Assembly (NCBI RefSeq): GCF_003991155.1
Contig: NZ_CP031293.1
DNA from: Escherichia coli
Lineage (GTDB): Bacteria; Pseudomonadota; Gammaproteobacteria; Enterobacterales; Enterobacteriaceae
Strand: one strand, 5' to 3'
DNA length: 64,000 bases
Shown here: one piece after another, positions 3,791 through 37,357 of the stretch
How the letters are laid out: each line of letters opens with the position of its first letter
Position numbering within the stretch: the stretch's first letter is position 1
Position numbers and translations under genes: made by a program
Notes under the pieces: model-generated
The model's database searches: none
What the model saw: the letters and a program-made list of their open reading frames with translations, nothing else
What the model was told of the DNA's origin: nothing

Positions 3791-6700
3791 GTGAAGTTTT
3801 TTGCCCTCTTCATTTACCGCCCGGTGGCGACGATTTTACTGTCGGTCGCCATTACCCTGTGCGGCATACTGGGTTTCCGTATGCTGCCAGTCGCCTCGCT
3901 GCCGCAGGTCGATTTTCCGGTGATCATGGTCAGCGCCTCGCTGCCCGGTGCGTCACCAGAAACAATGGCGTCTTCCGTTGCCACGCCGCTGGAGCGCTCA
4001 CTTGGGCGCATTGCCGGAGTCAGCGAAATGACCTCCAGCAGTTCGCTCGGCAGCACGCGCATTATTTTGCAGTTTGATTTTGACCGGGATATCAACGGCG
4101 CAGCGCGCGATGTGCAGGCGGCGATCAACGCCGCGCAAAGTCTGCTACCCAGCGGGATGCCCAGCCGTCCGACCTATCGCAAAGCGAACCCATCGGATGC
4201 GCCAATTATGATCCTCACGCTGACATCCGATACTTATTCGCAGGGTGAACTGTACGATTTCGCCTCGACACAGCTGGCTCCGACAATTTCGCAAATCGAC
4301 GGTGTCGGTGATGTCGATGTCGGCGGCAGCTCACTGCCCGCCGTACGCGTCGGGCTGAATCCGCAGGCGCTGTTTAATCAGGGCGTCTCGCTGGACGACG
4401 TACGCACTGCCATCAGCAATGCCAACGTGCGTAAACCGCAGGGCGCACTGGAAGATGGCACCCACCGCTGGCAGATCCAGACCAATGACGAACTGAAAAC
4501 TGCCGCTGAATATCAGCCGCTAATTATTCATTACAACAACGGCGGAGCGGTTCGTCTGGGCGATGTGGCGACGGTGACCGACTCAGTACAGGATGTGCGC
4601 AACGCCGGGATGACCAACGCCAAACCGGCTATTTTGCTGATGATCCGCAAGCTGCCGGAAGCCAATATTATCCAGACGGTAGACAGCATCCGCGCCCGTC
4701 TGCCGGAATTACAATCCACCATCCCGGCAGCAATTGATCTGCAAATTGCCCAGGATCGCTCCCCTACTATCCGCGCGTCGCTGGAAGAGGTTGAGCAGAC
4801 GCTGATTATCTCGGTGGCGCTGGTGATTCTGGTGGTGTTTTTATTCCTGCGCTCGGGTCGCGCCACTATTATTCCCGCCGTTGCGGTGCCGGTTTCGCTG
4901 ATTGGTACGTTTGCGGCGATGTACCTGTGCGGATTCAGTCTCAATAACCTTTCGTTAATGGCACTCACCATCGCTACTGGTTTCGTGGTGGATGACGCCA
5001 TCGTGGTGCTGGAAAACATTGCCCGTCATCTGGAAGCGGGGATGAAACCGCTACAGGCCGCGCTACAAGGTACTCGCGAAGTCGGCTTTACGGTGCTGTC
5101 GATGAGTCTGTCACTGGTGGCGGTGTTCCTGCCGCTGCTGTTGATGGGCGGATTGCCGGGTCGCCTGTTACGCGAGTTTGCCGTGACGCTTTCTGTCGCC
5201 ATTGGTATTTCGTTGCTGGTTTCCCTGACGTTAACGCCGATGATGTGCGGCTGGATGCTGAAAGCCAGCAAGCCGCGCGAGCAAAAGCGACTGCGTGGTT
5301 TTGGTCGCATGTTGGTAGCCCTGCAACAAGGCTATGGCAAGTCGCTGAAATGGGTGCTCAATCATACCCGTCTGGTGGGCGTGGTGCTGCTTGGCACCAT
5401 TGCGCTGAATATCTGGCTGTATATCTCGATCCCGAAAACCTTCTTCCCGGAGCAGGACACAGGCGTACTGATGGGCGGGATACAGGCTGACCAGAGTATT
5501 TCGTTTCAGGCGATGCGCGGCAAGTTGCAGGACTTCATGAAAATTATCCGTGACGATCCGGCGGTGGATAATGTCACCGGCTTTACTGGCGGTTCACGGG
5601 TGAACAGTGGAATGATGTTTATCACGCTTAAACCACGCGGCGAGCGGAGCGAAACGGCCCAGCAAATTATCGACCGTCTGCGGGTAAAGCTGGCGAAAGA
5701 GCCGGGGGCGAATCTGTTCCTGATGGCGGTACAGGATATTCGCGTTGGCGGACGTCAGTCGAACGCCAGCTATCAGTACACGTTACTGTCCGACGACCTG
5801 GCGGCACTGCGCGAATGGGAGCCGAAAATTCGCAAAAAACTGGCGACGTTGCCGGAACTGGCGGACGTGAACTCCGACCAGCAGGATAACGGCGCGGAAA
5901 TGAATCTGGTTTACGACCGCGACACCATGGCACGGCTGGGAATCGACGTGCAGGCCGCCAACAGCCTGTTAAATAACGCCTTCGGTCAGCGGCAAATCTC
6001 GACCATTTACCAGCCGATGAACCAGTATAAAGTGGTGATGGAAGTGGATCCGCGCTATACCCAGGACATCAGTGCGCTGGAAAAAATGTTCGTTATCAAT
6101 AACGAAGGAAAAGCGATCCCGCTGTCGTATTTCGCTAAATGGCAACCGGCGAATGCCCCACTATCGGTGAATCATCAGGGATTATCGGCGGCCTCGACCA
6201 TCTCGTTCAACCTGCCGACCGGGAAATCGCTCTCGGACGCCAGTGCGGCGATCGATCGCGCAATGACCCAGCTTGGTGTGCCTTCGACGGTGCGCGGCAG
6301 TTTTGCCGGCACGGCGCAGGTGTTCCAGGAGACGATGAACTCGCAGGTGATCCTGATTATCGCCGCCATCGCCACGGTGTATATCGTGCTGGGTATCCTT
6401 TACGAGAGTTACGTACATCCGCTGACGATCCTCTCCACCCTGCCCTCGGCGGGCGTTGGTGCGCTGCTGGCGCTGGAGCTGTTTAATGCCCCGTTCAGCC
6501 TAATCGCCCTGATAGGAATCATGCTATTAATCGGCATCGTGAAGAAAAACGCCATTATGATGGTCGATTTTGCGCTCGAAGCCCAACGGCACGGTAACCT
6601 GACGCCGCAGGAAGCTATTTTCCAGGCCTGTCTGCTGCGTTTTCGCCCGATTATGATGACTACCCTGGCGGCGCTGTTTGGCGCGCTGCCGCTGGTGTTG

Positions 6701-6868
6701 TCGGGCGGTGACGGCTCGGAGCTGCGGCAACCCCTGGGGATCACCATTGTCGGCGGTCTGGTAATGAGCCAGCTTCTGACGCTGTATACCACGCCGGTGG
6801 TGTATCTCTTTTTCGACCGTCTGCGGCTGCGTTTTTCGCGTAAACCTAAACAAACGATAACCGAGTAA
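3791..6868 (+). CDS. mdtC: RND multidrug efflux transporter permease MdtC
   Basis: 1025-aa RND paralog of MdtB starting with GTG one nt after the mdtB stop. Confidence 0.95.
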
Positions 6869-8284
6869 ATGACAGATCTTCCCGACAGCACCCGCTGGCA
6901 ATTGTGGATTGTGGCTTTCGGCTTCTTTATGCAGTCGCTGGACACCACCATCGTAAACACTGCCCTTCCCTCAATGGCGCAAAGCCTCGGGGAAAGTCCG
7001 TTGCATATGCACATGGTCATTGTCTCTTATGTGCTGACCGTGGCGGTGATGCTGCCCGCCAGCGGCTGGCTGGCGGACAAAGTCGGCGTGCGCAATATTT
7101 TCTTTACCGCCATCGTGCTGTTTACTCTCGGTTCACTGTTTTGCGCACTTTCCGGCACGCTGAACGAACTGTTGCTGGCACGCGCGTTACAGGGCGTTGG
7201 CGGTGCGATGATGGTGCCGGTCGGCAGGTTGACGGTGATGAAAATCGTACCGCGCGAGCAATATATGGCGGCGATGACCTTTGTCACGTTACCCGGTCAG
7301 GTCGGGCCGCTGCTCGGTCCGGCACTCGGCGGCCTGCTGGTGGAGTACGCCTCCTGGCACTGGATCTTTTTGATCAACATTCCGGTGGGGATTATCGGTG
7401 CGATCGCCACACTGATGTTAATGCCGAACTACACCATGCAGACGCGGCGCTTTGATCTCTCCGGCTTTTTATTGCTGGCGGTTGGCATGGCGGTATTAAC
7501 CCTGGCGCTGGACGGCAGTAAAGGTACAGGTTTATCGCCGCTGGCGATTGCTGGCCTGGTCACAGTTGGTGTGGTGGCACTGGTGCTTTATCTGCTGCAC
7601 GCCAGAAATAACAACCGCGCTCTTTTCAGTCTGAAACTGTTCCGCACTCGTACCTTTTCACTGGGCCTGGCGGGGAGCTTTGCCGGACGTATCGGTAGCG
7701 GCATGTTGCCCTTTATGACGCCGGTTTTCCTGCAAATTGGCCTCGGTTTCTCGCCTTTTCATGCCGGACTGATGATGATCCCGATGGTGCTTGGCAGCAT
7801 GGGAATGAAGCGAATTGTGGTACAGGTGGTGAATCGCTTTGGTTATCGTCGGGTACTGGTAGCGACCACGCTGGGTCTGTCGCTGGTCACCATGTTGTTT
7901 ATGACCACCGCGCTGCTGGGCTGGTACTACGTTTTACCGTTCGTCCTGTTTTTACAAGGAATGGTCAACTCAACGCGTTTCTCCTCCATGAACACCCTGA
8001 CGCTGAAAGATCTCCCGGACAATCTGGCGAGCAGCGGAAACAGCCTGCTGTCGATGATTATGCAATTGTCGATGAGTATCGGCGTCACTATCGCCGGGCT
8101 GTTGCTGGGACTTTTTGGTTCACAGCATGTCAGCGTCGACAGCGGCACCACACAAACCGTCTTTATGTACACCTGGCTTAGCATGGCGTTTATCATCGCC
8201 CTTCCGGCGTTCATCTTTGCCAGAGTGCCGAACGATACGCATCAAAATGTCGCTATTTCGCGGCGAAAAAGGAGCGCGCAATGA
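6869..8284 (+). CDS. mdtD: MFS transporter MdtD
   Basis: 471-aa hydrophobic ORF (14-TM MFS-like) abutting mdtC; stop overlaps baeS start. Confidence 0.9.
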
Positions 8285-29491: not shown

Positions 29492-29625
29492 AGTTTGCTC
29501 CTGCCATAACGTGAAGAAGCAATGACCTGGTGGTCCGTGACTTCCCTACGCTGGCATTATCCAGATCAGGTGATACGGGTATTTCTCAGCCTTCACGCAG
29601 AAGGGCACCCCGAGTCGTTTGGTTG
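29492..29625 (-). promoter_or_regulatory. TPP riboswitch (thi-box) leader of thiMD
   Basis: Minus-strand leader reads AACCAAACGACTCGGGGTGCCCTTCTGCGTGAAGGCTGAGAAATACCCGTATCACCTGATCTGGATAATGCCAGCGTAGGG, the thiM aptamer as I recall it, followed by the expression platform up to the thiM ATG. Confidence 0.85.
29544..29625. repeat. 82-bp direct repeat, left copy (attL-like); lies within the thiM riboswitch aptamer
   Basis: Perfect 82/82 identity with 37276..37357. Confidence 0.9.
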
Positions 29626-29837
29626 AATCTCTATATTTTGTGCCAGCTTAGGGGAAGTGGCTTGCAGATGCAAGCTCGCCTCCATTAATTGCTTCTTCTC
29701 TGTGTACCCCATTTTGTACCCCATATCAGAAATGAAAAAGAAACATTTAACATCTATCATTCAGATGATAAAAACTATTGATTATCTTAATTTGCTAATT
29801 TATATTATTTATCTAAATTTGATAGGTGAGATAAAAA

Positions 29838-30077
29838 ATGACAGAAACCCAGATCTACGAGAACATTAAGCAAGCCATTAGCAGCGCACCACGAAATAGC
29901 CAAACGATGGAAATGCACCTCCAGATGATCAAATATGCTGACCATCTGAAAAAGGTTACGGCAAAAGAGTTTTGTGAAGGTGTAGGACTTAAAGCCAGCT
30001 TTGGTACAGAGTTCAGCAAAATGAGAAATCTTACCGAGCGACTCAAAGCTGCTGGACTTGACACCACGAAGTTATAA
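29838..30077 (+). CDS. Hypothetical small protein (island)
   Basis: 79-aa ORF with SD-like GGTGAG upstream; no recognised motif. Confidence 0.4.
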   Translation: MTETQIYENIKQAISSAPRNSQTMEMHLQMIKYADHLKKVTAKEFCEGVGLKASFGTEFSKMRNLTERLKAAGLDTTKL

Positions 30078-30242
30078 AAAACAAATCATCAATATATTAT
30101 TTTTGTTTTCCAGACTTACTTGCATATGTTTCTACGAGCATAAAAAACAACAACCACCACATAGCTATTACCATAATAATGTTTTCCTTTTATATTAAAC
30201 AGAGAAATAGAATTAGAGCGTGGAATAGATGAATTCTATTTT

Positions 30243-30488
30243 CTATAACTTCTTGAGGTTGAATGTAGAAAAAGACAGCTCTTTCATTTCAATAACACCG
30301 AAATTTGATAGCTGTTTCAGCCAGAATTTTAAACCTGACTCAGAGCAACCTGCTCGATGTAACACATCGCTATATTTTAGCGGTGTTGGCTTTCCTTTAT
30401 AGAGGTAAACAAGCGTTTCGTAGGTGTGTTTTCCGGTGTCGTTACACTGAATGCGGTCTACTTGATTTTTTACTAAATATTGGATCAT
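30243..30488 (-). CDS. Hypothetical small protein, possible winged-helix (island)
   Basis: 81-aa ORF with AAGGAGG upstream, directly after the 239-aa gene stop. Confidence 0.45.
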   Translation of the reverse strand: MIQYLVKNQVDRIQCNDTGKHTYETLVYLYKGKPTPLKYSDVLHRAGCSESGLKFWLKQLSNFGVIEMKELSFSTFNLKKL

Positions 30489-30499
30489 AGTCCTCCTTA

Positions 30500-31219
30500 T
30501 TAAAATGGAATGTCAAAATCGTCCTCTTCTGTCTCAGGTATCGTGTATATATGTTCTCTTCCTGTAAATTCAGAAACCACTATTGAAATTAGCCTGTATG
30601 CCTCTATTTTATCGCCCTGCGTTTCAGCTAAAGCCCACTCAAGGGCTGCTTCTGTTGGCTGTCCATTCGGTTTGCAAATAGTGACACCGCCCCAAGGAAG
30701 CTCTGTTTTTTCCTGCTGAATAGAGCGTGTTGTTTCTAGTGTTTTTTTATCTTCCGTAGGGGGAAGCTGTTCAGGAACAGCTTTAACAGTAGATACTTGC
30801 TCTGTCTGTGGCTTTTCTGCATTTACAGAGGCTTTCGCTTCTCTTGGTGCTGTAATATGTGCATCTGTAAAGGGTAATGCTTTATAGAGTGATGTTTGAC
30901 CGTGGCGTGCCTCTACAGAAAGAACTCCCATATCAACAAACATATTTATAATATTGCGTACCTGACGATCACTAACCATTCCAATATTAGCTAATGTTTT
31001 TTGAGTAGCGTAACATTCTTGCCCTTGTTCATTGAATCCAGCTATATAGCTATAGATTTCAACGGCTGGCAGTGTAGCGGTGTATTCATTACCAGATGGT
31101 GAGTACCATTTTTTAAACATCTTCAACCATTGCTCAACAACTACATATTTTTGTTTACCATCTTTCTGATTTAGACATTTGGCTTTCGCTTCGGCAATTG
31201 TTTTGATATTTTTGATCAT
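30500..31219 (-). CDS. Putative replication-initiator-like DNA-binding protein with SSB-like acidic C-terminal tip (…EEDDFDIPF)
   Basis: 239-aa ORF with strong AAGGAGG SD; N-terminal wHTH-like segment, P/E/K/T-rich linker, C-terminus DDFDIPF. Confidence 0.6.
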   Translation of the reverse strand: MIKNIKTIAEAKAKCLNQKDGKQKYVVVEQWLKMFKKWYSPSGNEYTATLPAVEIYSYIAGFNEQGQECYATQKTLANIGMVSDRQVRNIINMFVDMGVLSVEARHGQTSLYKALPFTDAHITAPREAKASVNAEKPQTEQVSTVKAVPEQLPPTEDKKTLETTRSIQQEKTELPWGGVTICKPNGQPTEAALEWALAETQGDKIEAYRLISIVVSEFTGREHIYTIPETEEDDFDIPF

Positions 31220-31343
31220 TTAGTTCCTCCTTTGTAAGGACTGTAATTAGTAGTTCATTAACAAGTTTTGGAATTGATTTCCCTTCTGCCTTTGCGCGAT
31301 TTAACAACGCGTTATAAGTTGCAGAGTCAAAATTAATATTCAT
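31155..31343 (-). CDS. Ribbon-helix-helix (CopG/Arc-like) small DNA-binding protein
   Basis: Start at MNINFDSATYNALLNRAKAEGKS with GGAGAGGAGA SD; overlaps start of the Rep-like gene. Confidence 0.55.
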   Translation of the reverse strand: MNINFDSATYNALLNRAKAEGKSIPKLVNELLITVLTKEELNDQKYQNNCRSESQMSKSERW

Positions 31344-31365
31344 TTGGTTTTCTCCTCTCCTGTTA

Positions 31366-31548
31366 TTATTCTTTCTCTGCTTCTGCCTTACGCAGTTCAT
31401 CAATAATCTTGAGTGCATCGTCAAAGCATTTTTCACGCTCTGGATAACCTCGACTCCTTGCCATATTACGATTCATTACTACTTGATGTCGTGTTAACTC
31501 ACCTTTTTTAAATGCCTCTACGACGTGTTCCGGTATAAACCATTTCAT
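31366..31548 (-). CDS. Hypothetical 60-aa protein, first gene of the island's minus-strand operon
   Basis: ATG preceded by AAGGAG at optimal spacing; basic/acidic helical sequence. Confidence 0.5.
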   Translation of the reverse strand: MKWFIPEHVVEAFKKGELTRHQVVMNRNMARSRGYPEREKCFDDALKIIDELRKAEAEKE

Positions 31549-32323
31549 AAAAAACTCCTTATTCAGTTAAAAGAAAAACACCTTGCAAGCCTGACGGCTT
31601 CAAAGTGCATTGATTTTGATTATTTAGAGAAGAATGTTTTTCTGTCCCTCTAGTACCTATTATTACATATAAATAAACATTTGTCAATATCTTTTCATAA
31701 AAAATCAGAACCTTTTCATGCACTTACATTTTTTCTTAGCGATTCGTGCTCTCCTGTGTAGTGCTATTCTTCATTACCAGCTAAAACGCTCTAAAACGCG
31801 TTCTAACGAAGTTTTGATAAAAGCAATACATTCTCTTATGTAATGGCTGTTTAGCTCGCCAGAGGCTTATTTAAGTGGCTTATTTTGTATTTGTTAGATG
31901 ATGATAGATATAAAACAGAGAGTTCTTAGATTAGTTACTTTATAAAACGCTCTGTAAAGCCCTGTAGTGAGTTTATATATGTAGGCAAAGCGGTTTCCAT
32001 TCTCTACCCTGCTTAATGCTGTTAGAGAAGCATTTAGACCCCTTATTTTTAATTACCTAAAGTATCCTCTATACATCTCTGTTATGAAACACCTCTGAAT
32101 CCTTCATAAAACACATTATGACGCAAAGAACACTTTTCTAAGGTGATTCCCTTCCTGAACTCTGTTTCTTGCGTCAGAGAGCTACACAGAGAGCTTATAA
32201 AGCTATTATTAATAATAAAGTAGATAAAGTAAGTAAGATAAGTAAGAAGATTAACTAAGATAGATAAGATTAATAAGATCAGAATTCTCTTTCGGTGTCG
32301 CCTCTGGCTTTTCCACCGAAAAC

Positions 32324-33019
32324 AATTACACGACTACAGAATGTAGGAAGTGAAATTGTATTGAGGCTTAGTGAAATTACACGAGGAAAGCAGAGTGTAA
32401 TTGAGCTTTAGCCGCTCTCTCTTCGAGTAATTACACAACTACAGAGAATAACAGAGTTATTAAATGTAGGAGGGTAATTAAGAGTTAGAGAGAGTTAACA
32501 CGTAAGCAATCAGATGATTGGTTAGGTGATTACTCTTACTGCGCACAGCGCAATAGTATTCCTTCGTGGGCGTTACCGCCAACGATAGTTACACGAAGAA
32601 AGTAACGCTTTGCTTTCGGTGTGAGCGGAACGGGCCAGCCACAAAGCCCGAAAGGTAGCGGAGTAAGGCTGCTTGCCAGAGAGTGGAGCTAACGCCGGAA
32701 GGCAAAAGATCATATATATAGTATAAAGAATATTATTTAATTATAGTATTGGTGGAACTCATTACCTAAGGTAAACCGGAGACCACTTCCAACGGTTAGG
32801 CAACCACTTCCAATTGTGTTATTTCCCCTTTTACCCTAAGTAAATTTTAGCCTTTCGTTACATCCATTTATCACATAGCACTTACCCTGTGTAAATCATA
32901 GAATAATGCTCTCTATTCCCTGTGTAATTCCATACTAAAAAATTCAATGAAAAGTAGTTTAAAAGTGCAATGTTAGCTTTCTTCACTTTTACATCACTTT
33001 CGCTGCGCCTTGTGTAATG
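32324..33019. repeat. Iteron-like repeat cluster (AATTACAC core, both orientations) in a 1.75-kb non-coding region
   Basis: AATTACACGACTACAGA at ~32324 and AATTACACAACTACAGA at ~32429; shorter copies at ~32375 and inverted at ~32396, ~32885, ~32918, ~33008. Confidence 0.6.
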
Positions 33020-33312
33020 CGGCTTACAGAGCACTATCAGAAATTATTGATCAAAAATCAACCTATTATTTGTCGAACAAGTTTTCTTTAATGCAACAAA
33101 AATTATTTTTTCAAAATAAACACACAATTTAATAGCTTGCTAATTTTACCAAAATGTAACTACATGATTCTCATGCAAGAAGTGTAGTGATAAGGCAGGC
33201 TAAATCACCACACTAAAAAACTTCGAATTTCGTAGTGAAAAAAGTACTTTACACACCTAATCAACACGCCCAATAATCACTACACACAAATCAATACAGA
33301 AGAAAAAAGAAG

Positions 33313-33864
33313 ATGGCTAATATTGGATACATTAGGGTATCGACTGTGCAACAAAACACAGACCGTCAATTAGCAGGAGTAACTCTTGATAAAGTCTTTG
33401 AAGATAAAGCGTCAGGCAAGAACACTCAGCGCCCACAGTTTGAGGCAATGATGAACTATGTGCGGGAGGGTGACGTGTTACACGTCCATAGTATTGATCG
33501 CCTTTGTCGTAATACAGCCGACCTTCTGGCAACTGTAGAGCAATTAACAAAGCGCGGCGTGTCTGTGCATTTCCATAAAGAAGACTTTAAGACAGGAAAG
33601 AACTCTCCCGCAGGGAATATGATGCTCACAGTTCTTGCAGCAGTGGCACAAATGGAACGTGAAATGATGCTTGAGCGTCAACGTGAAGGGATCGCCGCAG
33701 CCAAGGCCGCTGGACGTATAGCAAAACGTGGTAATGGAAAAGCAATTGATCGAGCGGGAATTGCTGCCGCTCTCGCGAATGGTGGCTCAATTCGGAGCGT
33801 AGCAAAAGATTTCAGTGTCAGCACGCAGACGGTGCAACGTATCAAGAAAGAGCAGGTGGCGTAA
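33313..33864 (+). CDS. Small serine recombinase (resolvase/invertase family)
   Basis: 183 aa; N-terminal catalytic motif IGYIRVSTVQQNTDRQ with the nucleophilic Ser; C-terminal HTH. Confidence 0.85.
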   Translation: MANIGYIRVSTVQQNTDRQLAGVTLDKVFEDKASGKNTQRPQFEAMMNYVREGDVLHVHSIDRLCRNTADLLATVEQLTKRGVSVHFHKEDFKTGKNSPAGNMMLTVLAAVAQMEREMMLERQREGIAAAKAAGRIAKRGNGKAIDRAGIAAALANGGSIRSVAKDFSVSTQTVQRIKKEQVA

Positions 33865-34030
33865 TGCCTCCTTGATATTTGACAGGGACGGTCGGCAAAA
33901 ATCGGGGCTTGCTGATCTCAGCGTTGAGCGGTTCTTGCAATGGTGCCTAGGTGCTCGCTTGTATTCCCCTTCGATAATCACCACTAAGCCACTTATTGCC
34001 TTGTGGAGTGGCCCGAAAATTACTGATATC

Positions 34031-34531
34031 TTATTGATTCAGTCGATCCCATTTAACCGCAGATACAATTCCCCAATTACCACTAGCATTAGGCCTACGC
34101 CACTTCGCGGTTTCCATTCCACGAAGGTATTCGAGAGCTTCATTGAACGAACTGAAACGTTTCTGGGCTGATTTTTCCCCTACTCTAAACGAACCATCGC
34201 GAGTACTTGCCAATCCTGGATGAAAACACGACCCATCTGCAGCATAAGGAACAAGTACCTCCTGATCATCAGGTTTCCTTGAATCAGAAGCCAGTAACTG
34301 CCAAGGCTCAATACGCAAAGCGTCAGCCAGAACCTCAATTGCATCAAGAGATGCATTAGAGCAACCACGCTCAATTCGACTCATATAACTACGTGCAAAA
34401 CCACACCGATCTGCAAAGGCCTCTTGGCTTAAGCCAATAGCTATACGGAACTCTTTTACTCGTTGTCCAAAAAGGTATCTCAGATTCTTTCGCATGGCAC
34501 AAAGATGCAATTTGACGCACCAATTAACCAC
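34031..34531 (-). CDS. XRE-family HTH regulator with uncharacterised C-terminal domain
   Basis: Cro/C1-type HTH (GLSQEAFADRCGFARSYMSRIERG); likely start at internal Met (34495). Confidence 0.7.
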   Translation of the reverse strand: MVNWCVKLHLCAMRKNLRYLFGQRVKEFRIAIGLSQEAFADRCGFARSYMSRIERGCSNASLDAIEVLADALRIEPWQLLASDSRKPDDQEVLVPYAADGSCFHPGLASTRDGSFRVGEKSAQKRFSSFNEALEYLRGMETAKWRRPNASGNWGIVSAVKWDRLNQ

Positions 34532-34605
34532 GCACTAATCGTGACATTTTGAATCAATCATGTATTATTAGCATCACCATCCATTTGACACACCAAGGGA
34601 GACAA

Positions 34606-34953
34606 ATGAAAAAACTAGTATTTGCCGCTTTGTTAATTCCAGTGATGGGCCACGCCACAACCTTTTCCTGTAAAGCAATACAGGAAGGTCATATTGACTC
34701 GGGAAGTCAGAAAGTTTCTGTAGATTCAACTTTTGATATACAAGATAAAAAAATGACCATAAATCTTGGCGGTAAAACTTGGAGACTTGATTTGGTAGGT
34801 CAAAAAAGCATCGCAAAGATGTATGCTACACCTGACGGAGGGGTTGCAGCCACATACATTGACAATGGCAGTATACCGATATTTGTATTACGCCCTTCTA
34901 ATCCCGATGGGGAGATGGCTGTTTACACATTGAGTATGTGTTCTGAAGTATGA
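34606..34953 (+). CDS. Small secreted protein of unknown function
   Basis: Start at MKKLVFAALLIPVMGHA (signal peptide) with AAGGGAGA SD; divergent from the XRE gene. Confidence 0.6.
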   Translation: MKKLVFAALLIPVMGHATTFSCKAIQEGHIDSGSQKVSVDSTFDIQDKKMTINLGGKTWRLDLVGQKSIAKMYATPDGGVAATYIDNGSIPIFVLRPSNPDGEMAVYTLSMCSEV

Positions 34954-35030
34954 TTGATCGGCGTGATATTCACGCCGTTTTTGGGGAAATTTGTATATTG
35001 AAAAATATAGAAATAGAACTTTTATCAAGC

Positions 35031-35756
35031 CTATTTATTAACAGGTAGTAATGTCAGATCGCCATAATGGGCTTGTCTATGGCAATTAGGACATAATGCA
35101 ATAGCATTTTCCACAGAGTCCTCCCCCCCCTTTGAAAGCCACTCAATATGATGAACTTCTAGAAATGGAGTACCATCTTCCTTTAGAAAAGGAGCATCTC
35201 GCTTACAATATTGACATTTTCCATTTGCACTCAAAAGAACTTCAGCAACTACATATGGGCTTCGTTTATAAACTCGTGTTGTTACTTCGATTAGTTCCGG
35301 GATTTTACTTTCTGTCGCTAAAATTTGCTTTCGTTCCACTGAAGATAATTTTGCAGCCGTCTCAACAGCTTCTTCGAAAACCGATTTTACTTGACGATAA
35401 CGCCACATCCCTTCTAAATCCTGGTATAATTCCCAAATACCGTGCACAGATGGTTGATAGATTTCAAAAATATTTCCACGCTTGAACAATCGGTCATACT
35501 TATGATGCCGATGAGTTACATCATCAGTTCGTCGGGCAGTTTTGTTGAAACTCCAGTAGCTCCGCTTACAATTAACTGTATTAGCAATTAAATTGAGCCA
35601 AGTATTATCTTTATAAGATGGAAATAGCTTTCTAAGATAATCATCTACCTGCTTAGCCGTTGCAGCCCCACCAAACTGATTAGCAATTATCTGTATGGTA
35701 ATAGCTCTTATCGGTTGATCGCCATACTTGTATTTTTTGCCTAAATTTTTAACCAT
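35031..35756 (-). CDS. HNH endonuclease, McrA-like C-terminal nuclease domain with distinct N-terminal domain
   Basis: C-terminal CQYC...EVHHIEWLSKGG...NAIALCPNCHRQAHY zinc-finger HNH motif, similar to what I recall of E. coli McrA; ~150-aa N-terminal region unrecognised. Confidence 0.75.
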   Translation of the reverse strand: MVKNLGKKYKYGDQPIRAITIQIIANQFGGAATAKQVDDYLRKLFPSYKDNTWLNLIANTVNCKRSYWSFNKTARRTDDVTHRHHKYDRLFKRGNIFEIYQPSVHGIWELYQDLEGMWRYRQVKSVFEEAVETAAKLSSVERKQILATESKIPELIEVTTRVYKRSPYVVAEVLLSANGKCQYCKRDAPFLKEDGTPFLEVHHIEWLSKGGEDSVENAIALCPNCHRQAHYGDLTLLPVNK

Positions 35757-35884
35757 AGAAGACTCACTAAGCCTAAATTCATCTTAAGTTATTATTGTAA
35801 ATTAGTTGTGAAAATTTTTGATCTCAGACAATAAAAATCTACAAATTATTAGCTGGTTATACACTAAGAAGGATACACGAATAA

Positions 35885-37222
35885 CTAAGTCTCCCAACAA
35901 AGACCATCGATCACATAACAAACGGTGGAAAGTGGGAATGTGTGCAGATAACGCTGGGTAATCCCTACTCCACTCTTTTCATGACCTACCACCTGTTGCA
36001 GATGCGCCAAATTACTCACCCAACCAGCTAAACAAGTAGAAATCATAGTATGCCGGAAACTATGCACCAAGCGCCGCTGCCCATAATCATCAAGATAAGG
36101 AATATCAAGCTGATCACGAACATCTGAAAGAACTTTACCTATCTTTGACATATTTCGACCTGAGACTTCCGAAAAGATTTTCTCTTTCCATTGGCGGTTA
36201 ACAAAATCCAGAAACCCCCACTCAATCAGTTTGGGATGAATCACTACCTGTCTTGTAGCATTCTCAGTTTTACCCAGCCTTCTTTCCGCGATCAGAAGAT
36301 AGTGCCGCTGGCTATCTTCATCAAATTTGATCTGCGACTTCTCCAGTTTAGCAATCTCACCTCTTCTGGCTCCTGTGTACGCCAACAACAAAGTGATCCA
36401 CTTCTGCCATCCATCAGGCTGCTTTAGTGCCCATCCTACAAATTTTTTCATTTCTGCTGCACTGTATGCACCAAACCTAGCTTTGGATGGTGCCGCTACT
36501 ATTCCATCAGTCGGAGACTTAGATAGAATATCTTTGTTTTCAGTCAGAAATGTTTTGAATAACGATTTGTAGATTTTAAGGTGCTTATGTACAGCCTCAG
36601 CACCAACTAAATCCTCTGGCAGCACATCATCACATTCGATTAGTTGCTGAATAGTCATTGACCTATACGGTTGCACTACACGCTTTGGTAAGTTTTCGAC
36701 AGTTTCCATTACTCGCTTAATATCTTGTTTGGTGATTGCCGTTACGTCTGTTTCTTTTCCCAAGACAACAAGCAATACCTCCATATAACGCTCATTTGCC
36801 ATTGAGATCGATTTTGTCCAATTTCGACCTCTTTCCTCCTTGTACATAGCCCACGCATCAGCAAGTGTTAGCACCTTTTCCGGTTTGGCTGGTGGTTGAA
36901 GCTGCAAAACTTCTTTAGAAATATTGTTCAATTGCTGAGGGAGTGGCAACGGAATCATTACGTTACGTGACGAAGCGATCAAGTTTGAAACAAACTTATT
37001 AAATTGTGGCAACGGAGTAGCGAGTGATTTAACGAAAGGAATGTGCGGAGTAAGGCCAATCATCAACGCCGATGCTTCGCGATAACTGTCAGTAAAAAGT
37101 GATTTTTTGTATATCCGACCATCCGAAAGCCGGATTTGTAGATAGTAATTACCGTTTCGCTGAAATGTGTATGGGAGAGTTCTTGACCTCATAAACGCCC
37201 CCTTTTTGTACCTTAACAGCAT
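35885..37222 (-). CDS. Tyrosine site-specific integrase
   Basis: 445 aa; C-terminal catalytic region with HSFRHT and GITQRYLH; starts 53 bp from the right direct repeat. Confidence 0.85.
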   Translation of the reverse strand: MLLRYKKGAFMRSRTLPYTFQRNGNYYLQIRLSDGRIYKKSLFTDSYREASALMIGLTPHIPFVKSLATPLPQFNKFVSNLIASSRNVMIPLPLPQQLNNISKEVLQLQPPAKPEKVLTLADAWAMYKEERGRNWTKSISMANERYMEVLLVVLGKETDVTAITKQDIKRVMETVENLPKRVVQPYRSMTIQQLIECDDVLPEDLVGAEAVHKHLKIYKSLFKTFLTENKDILSKSPTDGIVAAPSKARFGAYSAAEMKKFVGWALKQPDGWQKWITLLLAYTGARRGEIAKLEKSQIKFDEDSQRHYLLIAERRLGKTENATRQVVIHPKLIEWGFLDFVNRQWKEKIFSEVSGRNMSKIGKVLSDVRDQLDIPYLDDYGQRRLVHSFRHTMISTCLAGWVSNLAHLQQVVGHEKSGVGITQRYLHTFPLSTVCYVIDGLCWET

Positions 37223-37275
37223 GATTTATGGTCAAAAAGAGATACAACCACATAATTTTCAAGACTATTTTGGCC

Positions 37276-37357
37276 CCCTACGCTGGCATTATCCAGATCA
37301 GGTGATACGGGTATTTCTCAGCCTTCACGCAGAAGGGCACCCCGAGTCGTTTGGTTG
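37276..37357. repeat. 82-bp direct repeat, right copy (attR-like); duplicate of the thiM aptamer segment
   Basis: Identical to 29544..29625; followed by native sequence leading into rcnR. Confidence 0.9.

Follow-up and report, generated by a model that had tools for sequence, protein, structure and literature searches.

Controller (C) proteins of restriction-modification (R-M) systems, such as C.AhdI (PDB 1y7y) and C.BclI (PDB 2b5a), are single-domain regulators of about 70–100 aa, and their C-boxes are GACT...AGTC palindromes. The subject here is a pair of divergent genes at 34031–34953 of a 64,000-nucleotide stretch of Escherichia coli DNA (contig NZ_CP031293.1 of assembly GCF_003991155.1; the whole stretch is called the window below), one encoding a 154-aa regulator with a helix-turn-helix (HTH) of the Cro/C1 (XRE) type and the other a 115-aa protein predicted to be exported. 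The class of regulator is already known, and its HTH sequence is nearest to those of the C proteins. Further likenesses are an operator-like element that is conserved and whose distance upstream of the regulator gene is constant, which would imply autoregulation, and the existence of stand-alone HTH relatives, 70–80 aa long and 55–70% identical to regulator aa 1–70. Unlike C proteins, it has an additional C-terminal domain (CTD) of 73 aa that is predicted to be folded, its boxes are TTRGTGYGTSR direct repeats, it is paired divergently with exported proteins, and it has with it no nuclease operon or methyltransferase, the gene downstream of it being a convergent recombinase.

With CapH (of CapH/CapP, CBASS), ImmR (of ImmR/ImmA, ICEBs1) and SinR it shares the combination of an XRE HTH with a C-terminal accessory region, and a mobile or defence context, but its CTD is unrelated to theirs by sequence and what adjoins it is the gene for an exported protein rather than for an HExxH metallopeptidase. 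It differs from the XRE antitoxins of type II toxin-antitoxin systems (HigA, HipB, MqsA) in that the two genes do not form a co-directional operon and the partner has a Sec signal, and from the CI/Cro switch of phages in that the partner, exported and with no match to an HTH or other DNA-binding family, does not make the pair one of two DNA-binding proteins. And to what should the partner itself be compared? Small exported exclusion or immunity proteins include Cor and Llp of phages, TraT and TrbK of conjugative elements, and periplasmic immunity proteins of the type VI secretion system or lysozyme-inhibitor kind. Small size, Sec export or lipoprotein character, hypervariability and residence on mobile elements are features in common with all of these, from which the 115-aa protein differs in having no sequence or profile similarity to any such family.

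Much of the variable anti-phage arsenal of E. coli is carried by small integrase-only islands, whose regulation and mobilisation are an open question (PMC10121019). As described by Hochhauser et al. (2023, PMC10121019), these islands are small, sit at integration hotspots and have an integrase or recombinase and defence cargo but no other known mobility genes. The island that contains the present pair, and its relatives, fit that description. That paper has no mention of thiM, rcnR, a riboswitch or a resolvase, and the module of regulator plus exported partner, like the cargo-slot boundary, comes from the present analysis. We put at about even the chances of the following reading: the regulator would be an autoregulated, C-protein-like repressor with a sensor or oligomerisation domain, it would also govern an envelope-acting gene, and the two would form a portable backbone module of islands with defence cargo. 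In the libraries and literature searched, three things appear undescribed: the CTD family, the operator-like box at its fixed position, and the fact that on integrase-only islands the regulator is systematically paired with exported proteins that are hypervariable.

The regulator and its C-terminal domain

Both divergent genes are present where the initial annotation had placed them, and both agree with RefSeq. The regulator gene is on the minus strand at 34031–34495 (WP_001316486.1, ‘helix-turn-helix domain-containing protein’) and the gene for the small protein on the plus strand at 34606–34953 (WP_000737407.1, ‘hypothetical protein’). As the regulator has 452 homologous clusters and the small protein 27, both are judged to be real and conserved genes, not chance open reading frames (ORFs). 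For the regulator the start is most likely the ATG at 34495 rather than the upstream GTG at 34531 with which the mechanical ORF begins, because 30 of 30 aligned homologues start at that methionine; RefSeq concurs. The 4 kb tested (33300–37300) is 100% identical to several complete E. coli genomes, and the family searches did not assign the two proteins to housekeeping families.

Pfam bears out the XRE assignment made initially. The HTH domain spans aa 9–68 (34292–34471, minus strand), with matches over aa 9–63 to HTH_31 (5e-12, 46.3 bits against a cut-off of 27) and HTH_3 (1e-9, 38.3 bits against a cut-off of 23), and its closest solved relatives are C.AhdI (2.2e-10), C.BclI (4.5e-7) and then SinR (3e-6). 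The best PADLOC model for the regulator is the R-M ‘Control_protein’ (5.7e-17), which is matched through the HTH only, the capH model matches at 4e-9 over aa 8–82, and the NCBIfam antitoxin matches (HipB/Y4mF, MqsA-type) are weak and far under the family cut-offs. An AlphaFold model of the full-length protein (107-sequence alignment, pLDDT 91.5) consists of the HTH as a five-helix bundle (aa 5–20, 24–31, 35–42, 48–59 and 64–68; pLDDT 87–97), a linker that is disordered at aa 73–77, and a separate CTD, giving a layout of HTH at aa 9–68, linker at aa 70–79 and compact CTD at aa ~80–152. This full-length architecture is kept at 57–82% identity in Enterobacterales, Pseudomonas and beyond (the 452 clusters and a genome scan).

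Neither Pfam, NCBIfam, PHROGs nor PADLOC covers regulator aa ~75–154. The initial annotation had pointed to a C-terminal extension of ~100 aa that it did not recognise; in every library searched it stays unrecognised, while its length comes down to ~85 aa, and the motif then quoted, DGSCFHPGLASTRDGSFRVGEK, is regulator aa 87–108. The CTD proper, of an un-named family, is at aa 80–152 (34040–34258, minus strand). Modelled alone by AlphaFold (pLDDT 95, pTM 0.81), it is predicted with confidence to be a compact, folded alpha/beta domain of ~73 aa, in which a strand is followed by a long loop, two short strands, a helix, a further strand and a beta-hairpin. Its profile matched nothing in Pfam or among PDB sequences, it has no NCBIfam match, and a structural search with the model gave no significant neighbour. 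With aa 70–154 as query, HMMER over the whole library returned 470 representative clusters at E<=1e-3 (194 at E<=1e-10), for which the consensus is VPxAxDGSxFxPxL...GxYxVGxKGxE..F..FxEAL..L..M..AxWRRPN..GNWGIVSAVxW, with G106, W132, R134 and W149 invariant.

What is the company that this domain keeps? It is found alone (~84 aa) or, mostly, as the C-terminus of proteins of 150–370 aa, and among 148 representatives Pfam recognises ASCH in 20, an XRE HTH in six, the UDG superfamily in two and an RNase_T exonuclease in one, the remainder being unrecognised. The ASCH, UDG and exonuclease fusions suggest nucleic-acid biology. The genes for the ASCH-CTD proteins adjoin type I Zorya in five of seven contexts, in three arrangements, the Zorya genes being ZorA-like_t1, ZorB/OmpA, ZorC/EH_Signature and ZorD/SNF2; nothing that links ASCH with Zorya was found in the searchable literature, and PADLOC-DB 2.0 had no match to the CTD proteins P0156 and P0169. 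Being widespread, with 470 clusters, and recurring near type I Zorya, the domain could on characterisation turn out to be a sensing or effector module new to bacterial immunity. The Zorya-adjacent ASCH-CTD loci are L105 8001–15918, L088 9443–17333, L103 and L104 1–6906, and a contig of ENA ERZ1305449, and a DUF2130 gene or a gene for a 411-aa coiled-coil-like protein at times accompanies them. A separate observation is of a 321-aa CTD protein in Rhodobacterales (L098–L100, gene at 6001–6966), which is encoded between Tn7-like transposition genes, TniQ and TniB with adjoining large un-annotated genes, and cargo with methylase and Vsr genes, and so is another CTD protein at a boundary of core and cargo.

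The intergenic region and its boxes

Between the two start codons lie 110 bp (34496–34605) that make up a putative bidirectional control region, as delineated by consensus scanning and cross-genus conservation. Only three times does the pattern TTRGTGYGTSR occur in the 64-kb window, against an expectation of 0.45, and all three matches are on the same strand within 84 bp of this region (34513–34596). Box c (34513–34523, minus strand, TTGGTGCGTCA) is next to the regulator start, box b (34528–34538, minus strand, TTAGTGCGTGG) is a direct repeat of it 15 bp apart, and box a (34586–34596, minus strand, TTGGTGTGTCA) lies between the promoter-like site of the small gene and the Shine-Dalgarno sequence of that gene, GGGAG at 34597–34601, which it abuts and which precedes the ATG at 34606. 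Two of the three are exact copies of the 14-mer TTGGTGYGTCAAAT, 73 bp apart. The promoter-like sites are GTGACA-16-TATTAT for the small gene (34541–34568, plus strand) and GTGTCA-16-AATAAT for the regulator (34591–34564, minus strand), with -10 hexamers that overlap on opposite strands.

The ~60 bp nearest the regulator gene show a conservation that reaches from E. coli as far as Pseudomonas and Burkholderiales. Box b (CGATTAGTGCGTGG) is at -46 to -50 from the regulator ATG in 37 of the 37 loci examined, which cover Enterobacterales, Pseudomonas, Burkholderiales and others and include HTH-only relatives; it does so in 20 sequence variants, of which the general form is C[GAT]AT[TA][AG]G[AT]GCGTGG, and in several of these loci there is a second tandem copy 15 bp upstream. 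The boxes follow the regulator and not the small gene: a homologue of the small protein that is 68% identical to it, and whose gene adjoins that of another small secreted protein in a Kiwa/Eco29kI island devoid of an XRE gene, has an unrelated upstream region with no boxes. Such a position, and such travelling together, are what would be expected of an autoregulated repressor or controller, and the sharp definition of the operator-like box makes the regulation directly testable. In the scan of the 64-kb window, the box pattern was absent upstream of the integrase, recombinase, replication-like and HNH genes.

Exported partners and the proposed working of the pair

That the divergent partner is a small exported protein, as the initial annotation had it, holds on inspection of its sequence together with an alignment of 14 homologues. 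A signal peptide occupies aa 1–17 (34606–34656) and consists of MKK, LVFAALLIPVM and GHA, with predicted cleavage before TT. Among the 14 homologues this N-terminal segment varies while retaining small residues at -3/-1 (SSA, SNA, GHA), and the mature part is ~90% conserved, with C22 and C112, near its two ends, invariant. The lipobox [LVI][ASTVI][GAS]C is absent, C22 being preceded by T-F-S or T-F-T and standing five residues past the predicted cleavage, and our reading is of a cleaved Sec signal and a probable periplasmic disulfide. The 27 clusters of homologues are all from Enterobacteriaceae. In PHROGs the protein matches the unannotated phrog_35183 over its full length (5e-26); Pfam, NCBIfam and PADLOC gave no family match, its profile found nothing in the PDB nor tblastn in phage genomes, and it has no HExxH motif or peptidase family match.

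Might it be a toxin that acts at the membrane, with the regulator as antitoxin and repressor and the pair an addiction module that stabilises the island? XRE HTHs are common antitoxins, the weak HipB/Y4mF and MqsA-type matches are of that kind, and some partners in related islands are small membrane proteins, e.g. the L062 type of 102 aa with two transmembrane (TM) segments. However, the genes are divergent instead of forming an operon, a cleavable Sec signal and a conserved cysteine pair would be typical of soluble periplasmic proteins, and partners elsewhere reach ~300 aa and include lipoproteins, so that an addiction module is to be credited with next to no probability.

The initial annotation had remarked that pairs like this in mobile elements often control cargo expression or have immunity or exclusion functions. 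The recurrence of the arrangement, with an XRE gene and a divergent gene for an exported protein seen across genera, proves stronger than could then be told. More than 25 loci from many genera have the arrangement tyrosine integrase, variable cargo, small serine recombinase, divergent partner, XRE-CTD gene, 0.3–1.1 kb of non-coding DNA and att repeat, and across Enterobacterales, Pseudomonas and Burkholderiales the regulator is a conserved feature by which many islands of this kind can be recognised. The partner varies by island, yet is almost always exported or membrane-anchored: besides the 115-aa protein of the window there are a 165-aa protein with two TM segments, proteins of 211 and 247 aa with signal peptides, and secreted proteins or lipoproteins of 130, 138, 169 and 176 aa. 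An N-terminal signal, lipobox or TM segment is present in 21 of 29 partner families as against 31% of 829 control ORFs from the same loci (binomial p = 5e-6), the families being defined by blastp single linkage and the ORF calling and hydrophobicity test being heuristic and crude. HTH-only relatives that do not have the CTD also show the pairing with exported partners. The partner families are mutually non-homologous and nearly all are devoid of family annotation; annotating the cargo and partner genes of the relatives gave nothing beyond one LprI (lysozyme inhibitor) domain, in the partner at L077. By eye, several partners share a C-terminal motif of ~75 aa, C...RD.G...VY.D....P......Y..C (L018 9141–9884; L031 9491–9883; L045 9605–9934; L102 2182–2550), which is probably a disulfide-bonded periplasmic helical domain.

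Is there any need to link the two genes functionally? The regulator might regulate itself or act elsewhere while the exported gene, with a constitutive promoter of its own, is independent of it in the manner of a moron. The homologue of the small protein in an island with no XRE gene, with its unrelated upstream region, is in keeping with this, as is the lack of relationship between partner families. Against it are the precise location of box a, between the promoter-like site of the small gene and its ribosome-binding site, and the enrichment of exported partners beside this HTH family, and independence of the two genes is in our estimation unlikely.

In the reading that we prefer, the regulator is a two-domain transcription factor, with a C-protein-like HTH, a flexible linker and the CTD, and we infer that it binds the repeated 11-bp boxes of the 110-bp region. 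Through boxes b and c it would repress its own promoter, and through box a the divergent promoter of the small gene; the CTD may tune the repression, whether as a sensor of a ligand or nucleic acid or through oligomerisation. The exported partner would act in the periplasm or envelope, most plausibly as an accessory factor of the exclusion or immunity type, a role suggested by the export and hypervariability of the partners. Several points weigh against this. The boxes are direct and not clearly inverted repeats, which is unusual for XRE dimers. The promoter scan was by consensus only, and its two matches in the region, against a mean of 3.1 in shuffled sequence, are not above chance, and the -10 of the conserved block is poor in the window, leaving the true regulator promoter uncertain. 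The fusions of the CTD to ASCH, UDG and exonuclease domains do not prove sensing. The pairing is not obligate, given that a homologue of the small protein exists with no XRE gene beside it and that a few XRE loci have cytoplasmic partners (L035, L041, L051), and with a small protein that matches no family and nothing in the PDB, a role in envelope defence is a guess.

A bolder version of that guess makes of the pair a two-gene defence system with swappable effectors. The CTD would sense a phage cue, a nucleic acid or nucleotide, the HTH would leave the boxes, and the partner, once induced, would block phage adsorption or entry or neutralise a toxin that targets the envelope. Defence association of the CTD family is in its favour, with ASCH-CTD beside type I Zorya and a CTD protein at a Tn7-like cargo junction beside methylase and Vsr genes, as are the XRE-CTD gene being a fixture of islands whose cargo is Gabija-like, Kiwa, R-M or other defence genes, and the hypervariability of the exported partners, as in an arms race, one of them with the lysozyme-inhibitor domain. 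But neither the small protein nor the CTD has a match among the PADLOC models, and since HTH-only relatives show the same pairing the architecture does not need the CTD; a switch triggered by infection thus seems improbable, if not negligibly so. A similarly slight chance is accorded to the broader proposition that the CTD, common to island XRE regulators, Zorya-I-linked ASCH proteins and proteins at Tn7-like cargo junctions, is an unrecognised defence-associated sensor or effector domain, and that the XRE-CTD protein with its interchangeable exported partner is a modular switch for envelope defence or exclusion that marks integrase-only islands. The systematic presence of a hypervariable exported protein beside the regulator suggests that these islands carry a class of envelope-acting accessory genes yet to be explored.

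The island, its cargo slot and its relatives

The mobile-element setting that had been presumed for the pair is established by direct repeats, low GC content and an integrase. Perfect direct repeats of 82 bp, 7,732 bp apart, delimit an element between thiM and rcnR, and are its att sites. The left one (29544–29625) is inside the thiamine pyrophosphate (TPP) riboswitch of thiM (Rfam TPP at 29526–29622, 71 bits) and the right one (37276–37357) is in a second TPP copy (Rfam TPP at 37259–37354, 61 bits), both TPP copies being annotated in RefSeq. GC content is 36–42% in the island, and 36–38% in 29626–33312, versus 49–52% in the flanks. Direct repeats, the integrase at its right-hand end, an atypical composition and presence in some strains but not in others mark the element as an integrative genomic island. 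The 82-bp repeat duplicates most of the TPP aptamer, and the copy next to thiM seems to be intact; set against tRNA or tmRNA genes, a riboswitch is an uncommon place for integration. A sub-threshold Rfam tmRNA match that overlaps the left end (29581–29835; 15 bits where the gathering threshold is 47, E 0.007) is most likely due to chance. A search of the literature for DUF6538 integrases or thiM/rcnR islands found nothing relevant.

From the left repeat rightward, the genes are those for proteins of 79 aa (29838–30077, plus strand), 81 aa (30243–30488, minus strand), 239 aa, replication-initiator-like (30500–31219, minus strand), and 60 aa (31366–31548, minus strand), followed by 1.76 kb of AT-rich DNA with no annotated gene (31550–33312, GC 36%), a small serine recombinase (33313–33864, plus strand; 183 aa, Pfam Resolvase 1e-38) convergent with the regulator gene, the regulator and small genes, an HNH endonuclease gene (35031–35756, minus strand; 241 aa) and a tyrosine integrase (35885–37192, minus strand, with its stop codon at 35885–35887; Pfam Phage_integrase, phrog_1 and RefSeq), beyond which is the right repeat. 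The small gene is followed by a hairpin like that of an intrinsic terminator (34959–34977, plus strand), with a T-run to 34987, which is the left edge of a slot for variable cargo (34977–35892, minus strand) that is here filled by the HNH gene.

The slot was delimited by comparison with E. coli N25, where the same island is at the same site with an identical XRE protein and with the small gene, recombinase and integrase, and where a gene for a 316-aa un-annotated protein replaces HNH. Homology to N25 breaks off with the hairpin, at 34976, and picks up again at 35893, a point that is 8 bp within the integrase gene from its 3′ end, and therefore the cargo slot starts directly after the terminator of the small gene, the pair being backbone and not cargo in this lineage. 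The N25 counterpart of the slot is at L107 7947–9607. With the boxes confined to the intergenic region of the pair itself and the slot beginning only beyond that terminator, the initial suggestion that the pair controls cargo expression is not upheld.

Could the regulator at least be a C protein of the R-M type, one that sets when the HNH nuclease is expressed once the island has arrived in a new host? Its HTH is most similar to those of C proteins, and the HNH gene, which is type IV-restriction-like (Pfam HNH 1e-12; PADLOC mREase_IV 2e-23), is 78 bp beyond the small gene. However, that gene is separated from the regulator by the small gene and a terminator, points the same way as the integrase and is not preceded by a box; the same regulator goes with different cargo in the N25 slot and with cargo of unrelated kinds in other islands; and the island has no methyltransferase gene. 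Gene order, terminator, cargo swap and export signal between them contradict both this possibility and that of a toxin-antitoxin module, and timing of the HNH gene is accordingly rated very improbable. The N-terminal 130 aa of the HNH protein have no family match.

Of 5,426 complete E. coli genomes, 64 have a match to the segment 33300–37300, from recombinase to integrase, that covers 80% or more of it; in the same set the XRE-small pair is in 120 and XRE-CTD homologues are in 919, the places of the latter including 70 on plasmids. Cargo in related islands includes Gabija-like OLD/UvrD genes, AAA_15 with DUF8370/8371, NA37 and others, as well as Kiwa and R-M, and the att repeat is the 3′ end of a tRNA in two of them (L009 and L020). 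Compared with those of the window, the regulators of related islands are ~80% identical, the integrases 22–28% and the recombinases 36–40%, relatives of the recombinase being 1.4–3.7 kb from the XRE gene in most of these islands. That conserved regulators go with diverged integrases means that the regulator module has moved between island types.

These comparisons bear on whether the regulator is instead a master repressor of the whole island, comparable to Stl of SaPIs, ImmR of ICEBs1 or SetR of SXT, that keeps excision and transfer silent until a helper element or stress brings about its inactivation through the CTD. Its gene belongs to the conserved backbone of a family of small islands with an integrase, where it occupies the end away from that integrase, and a serine recombinase is nearby in most of the related islands. 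But no box is found outside its own intergenic region, in particular none before the genes for the integrase, the recombinase or the replication-like protein; a partner protease is absent, as the small protein is devoid of HExxH; and the near constancy of the regulator across islands with such different integrases fits a self-contained module better, so that a master repressor is quite unlikely.

Two other possibilities were considered and set aside. The unit of partner and XRE gene is inverted with respect to the recombinase relative to related islands, and an invertible segment was dropped as there are no convincing flanking inverted repeats. Origin from a phage satellite or prophage is unsupported, with only three full-length matches in 2.9 million viral contigs and, besides, one unverified 9.7-kb scaffold.

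A few features of the DNA around these genes may be recorded. The stretch at 31550–33312 has no ORF >54 aa in most of its length and no Rfam match, and showed no homology, except one weak match, to the gene-free DNA beside the XRE gene in related islands; an origin, a site for transfer or packaging, or small RNAs might be located there. Among Enterobacterales islands (L017–L039, L096), ~150 bp directly 3′ of the XRE gene (about 5–160 bp past its stop codon) are 70–85% identical despite different partners and cargo; these are absent from the island of the window and might serve the integrase as an arm site or else be a site for a recombinase. In the leuX region of O157:H7 EC4115 (L096), an XRE-CTD island at tRNA-Leu stands in tandem with another, decayed one, whose integrase is truncated and which carries both a phosphorothioate-DNA-dependent restriction enzyme and type II Zorya, an instance of islands accreting at one hotspot.

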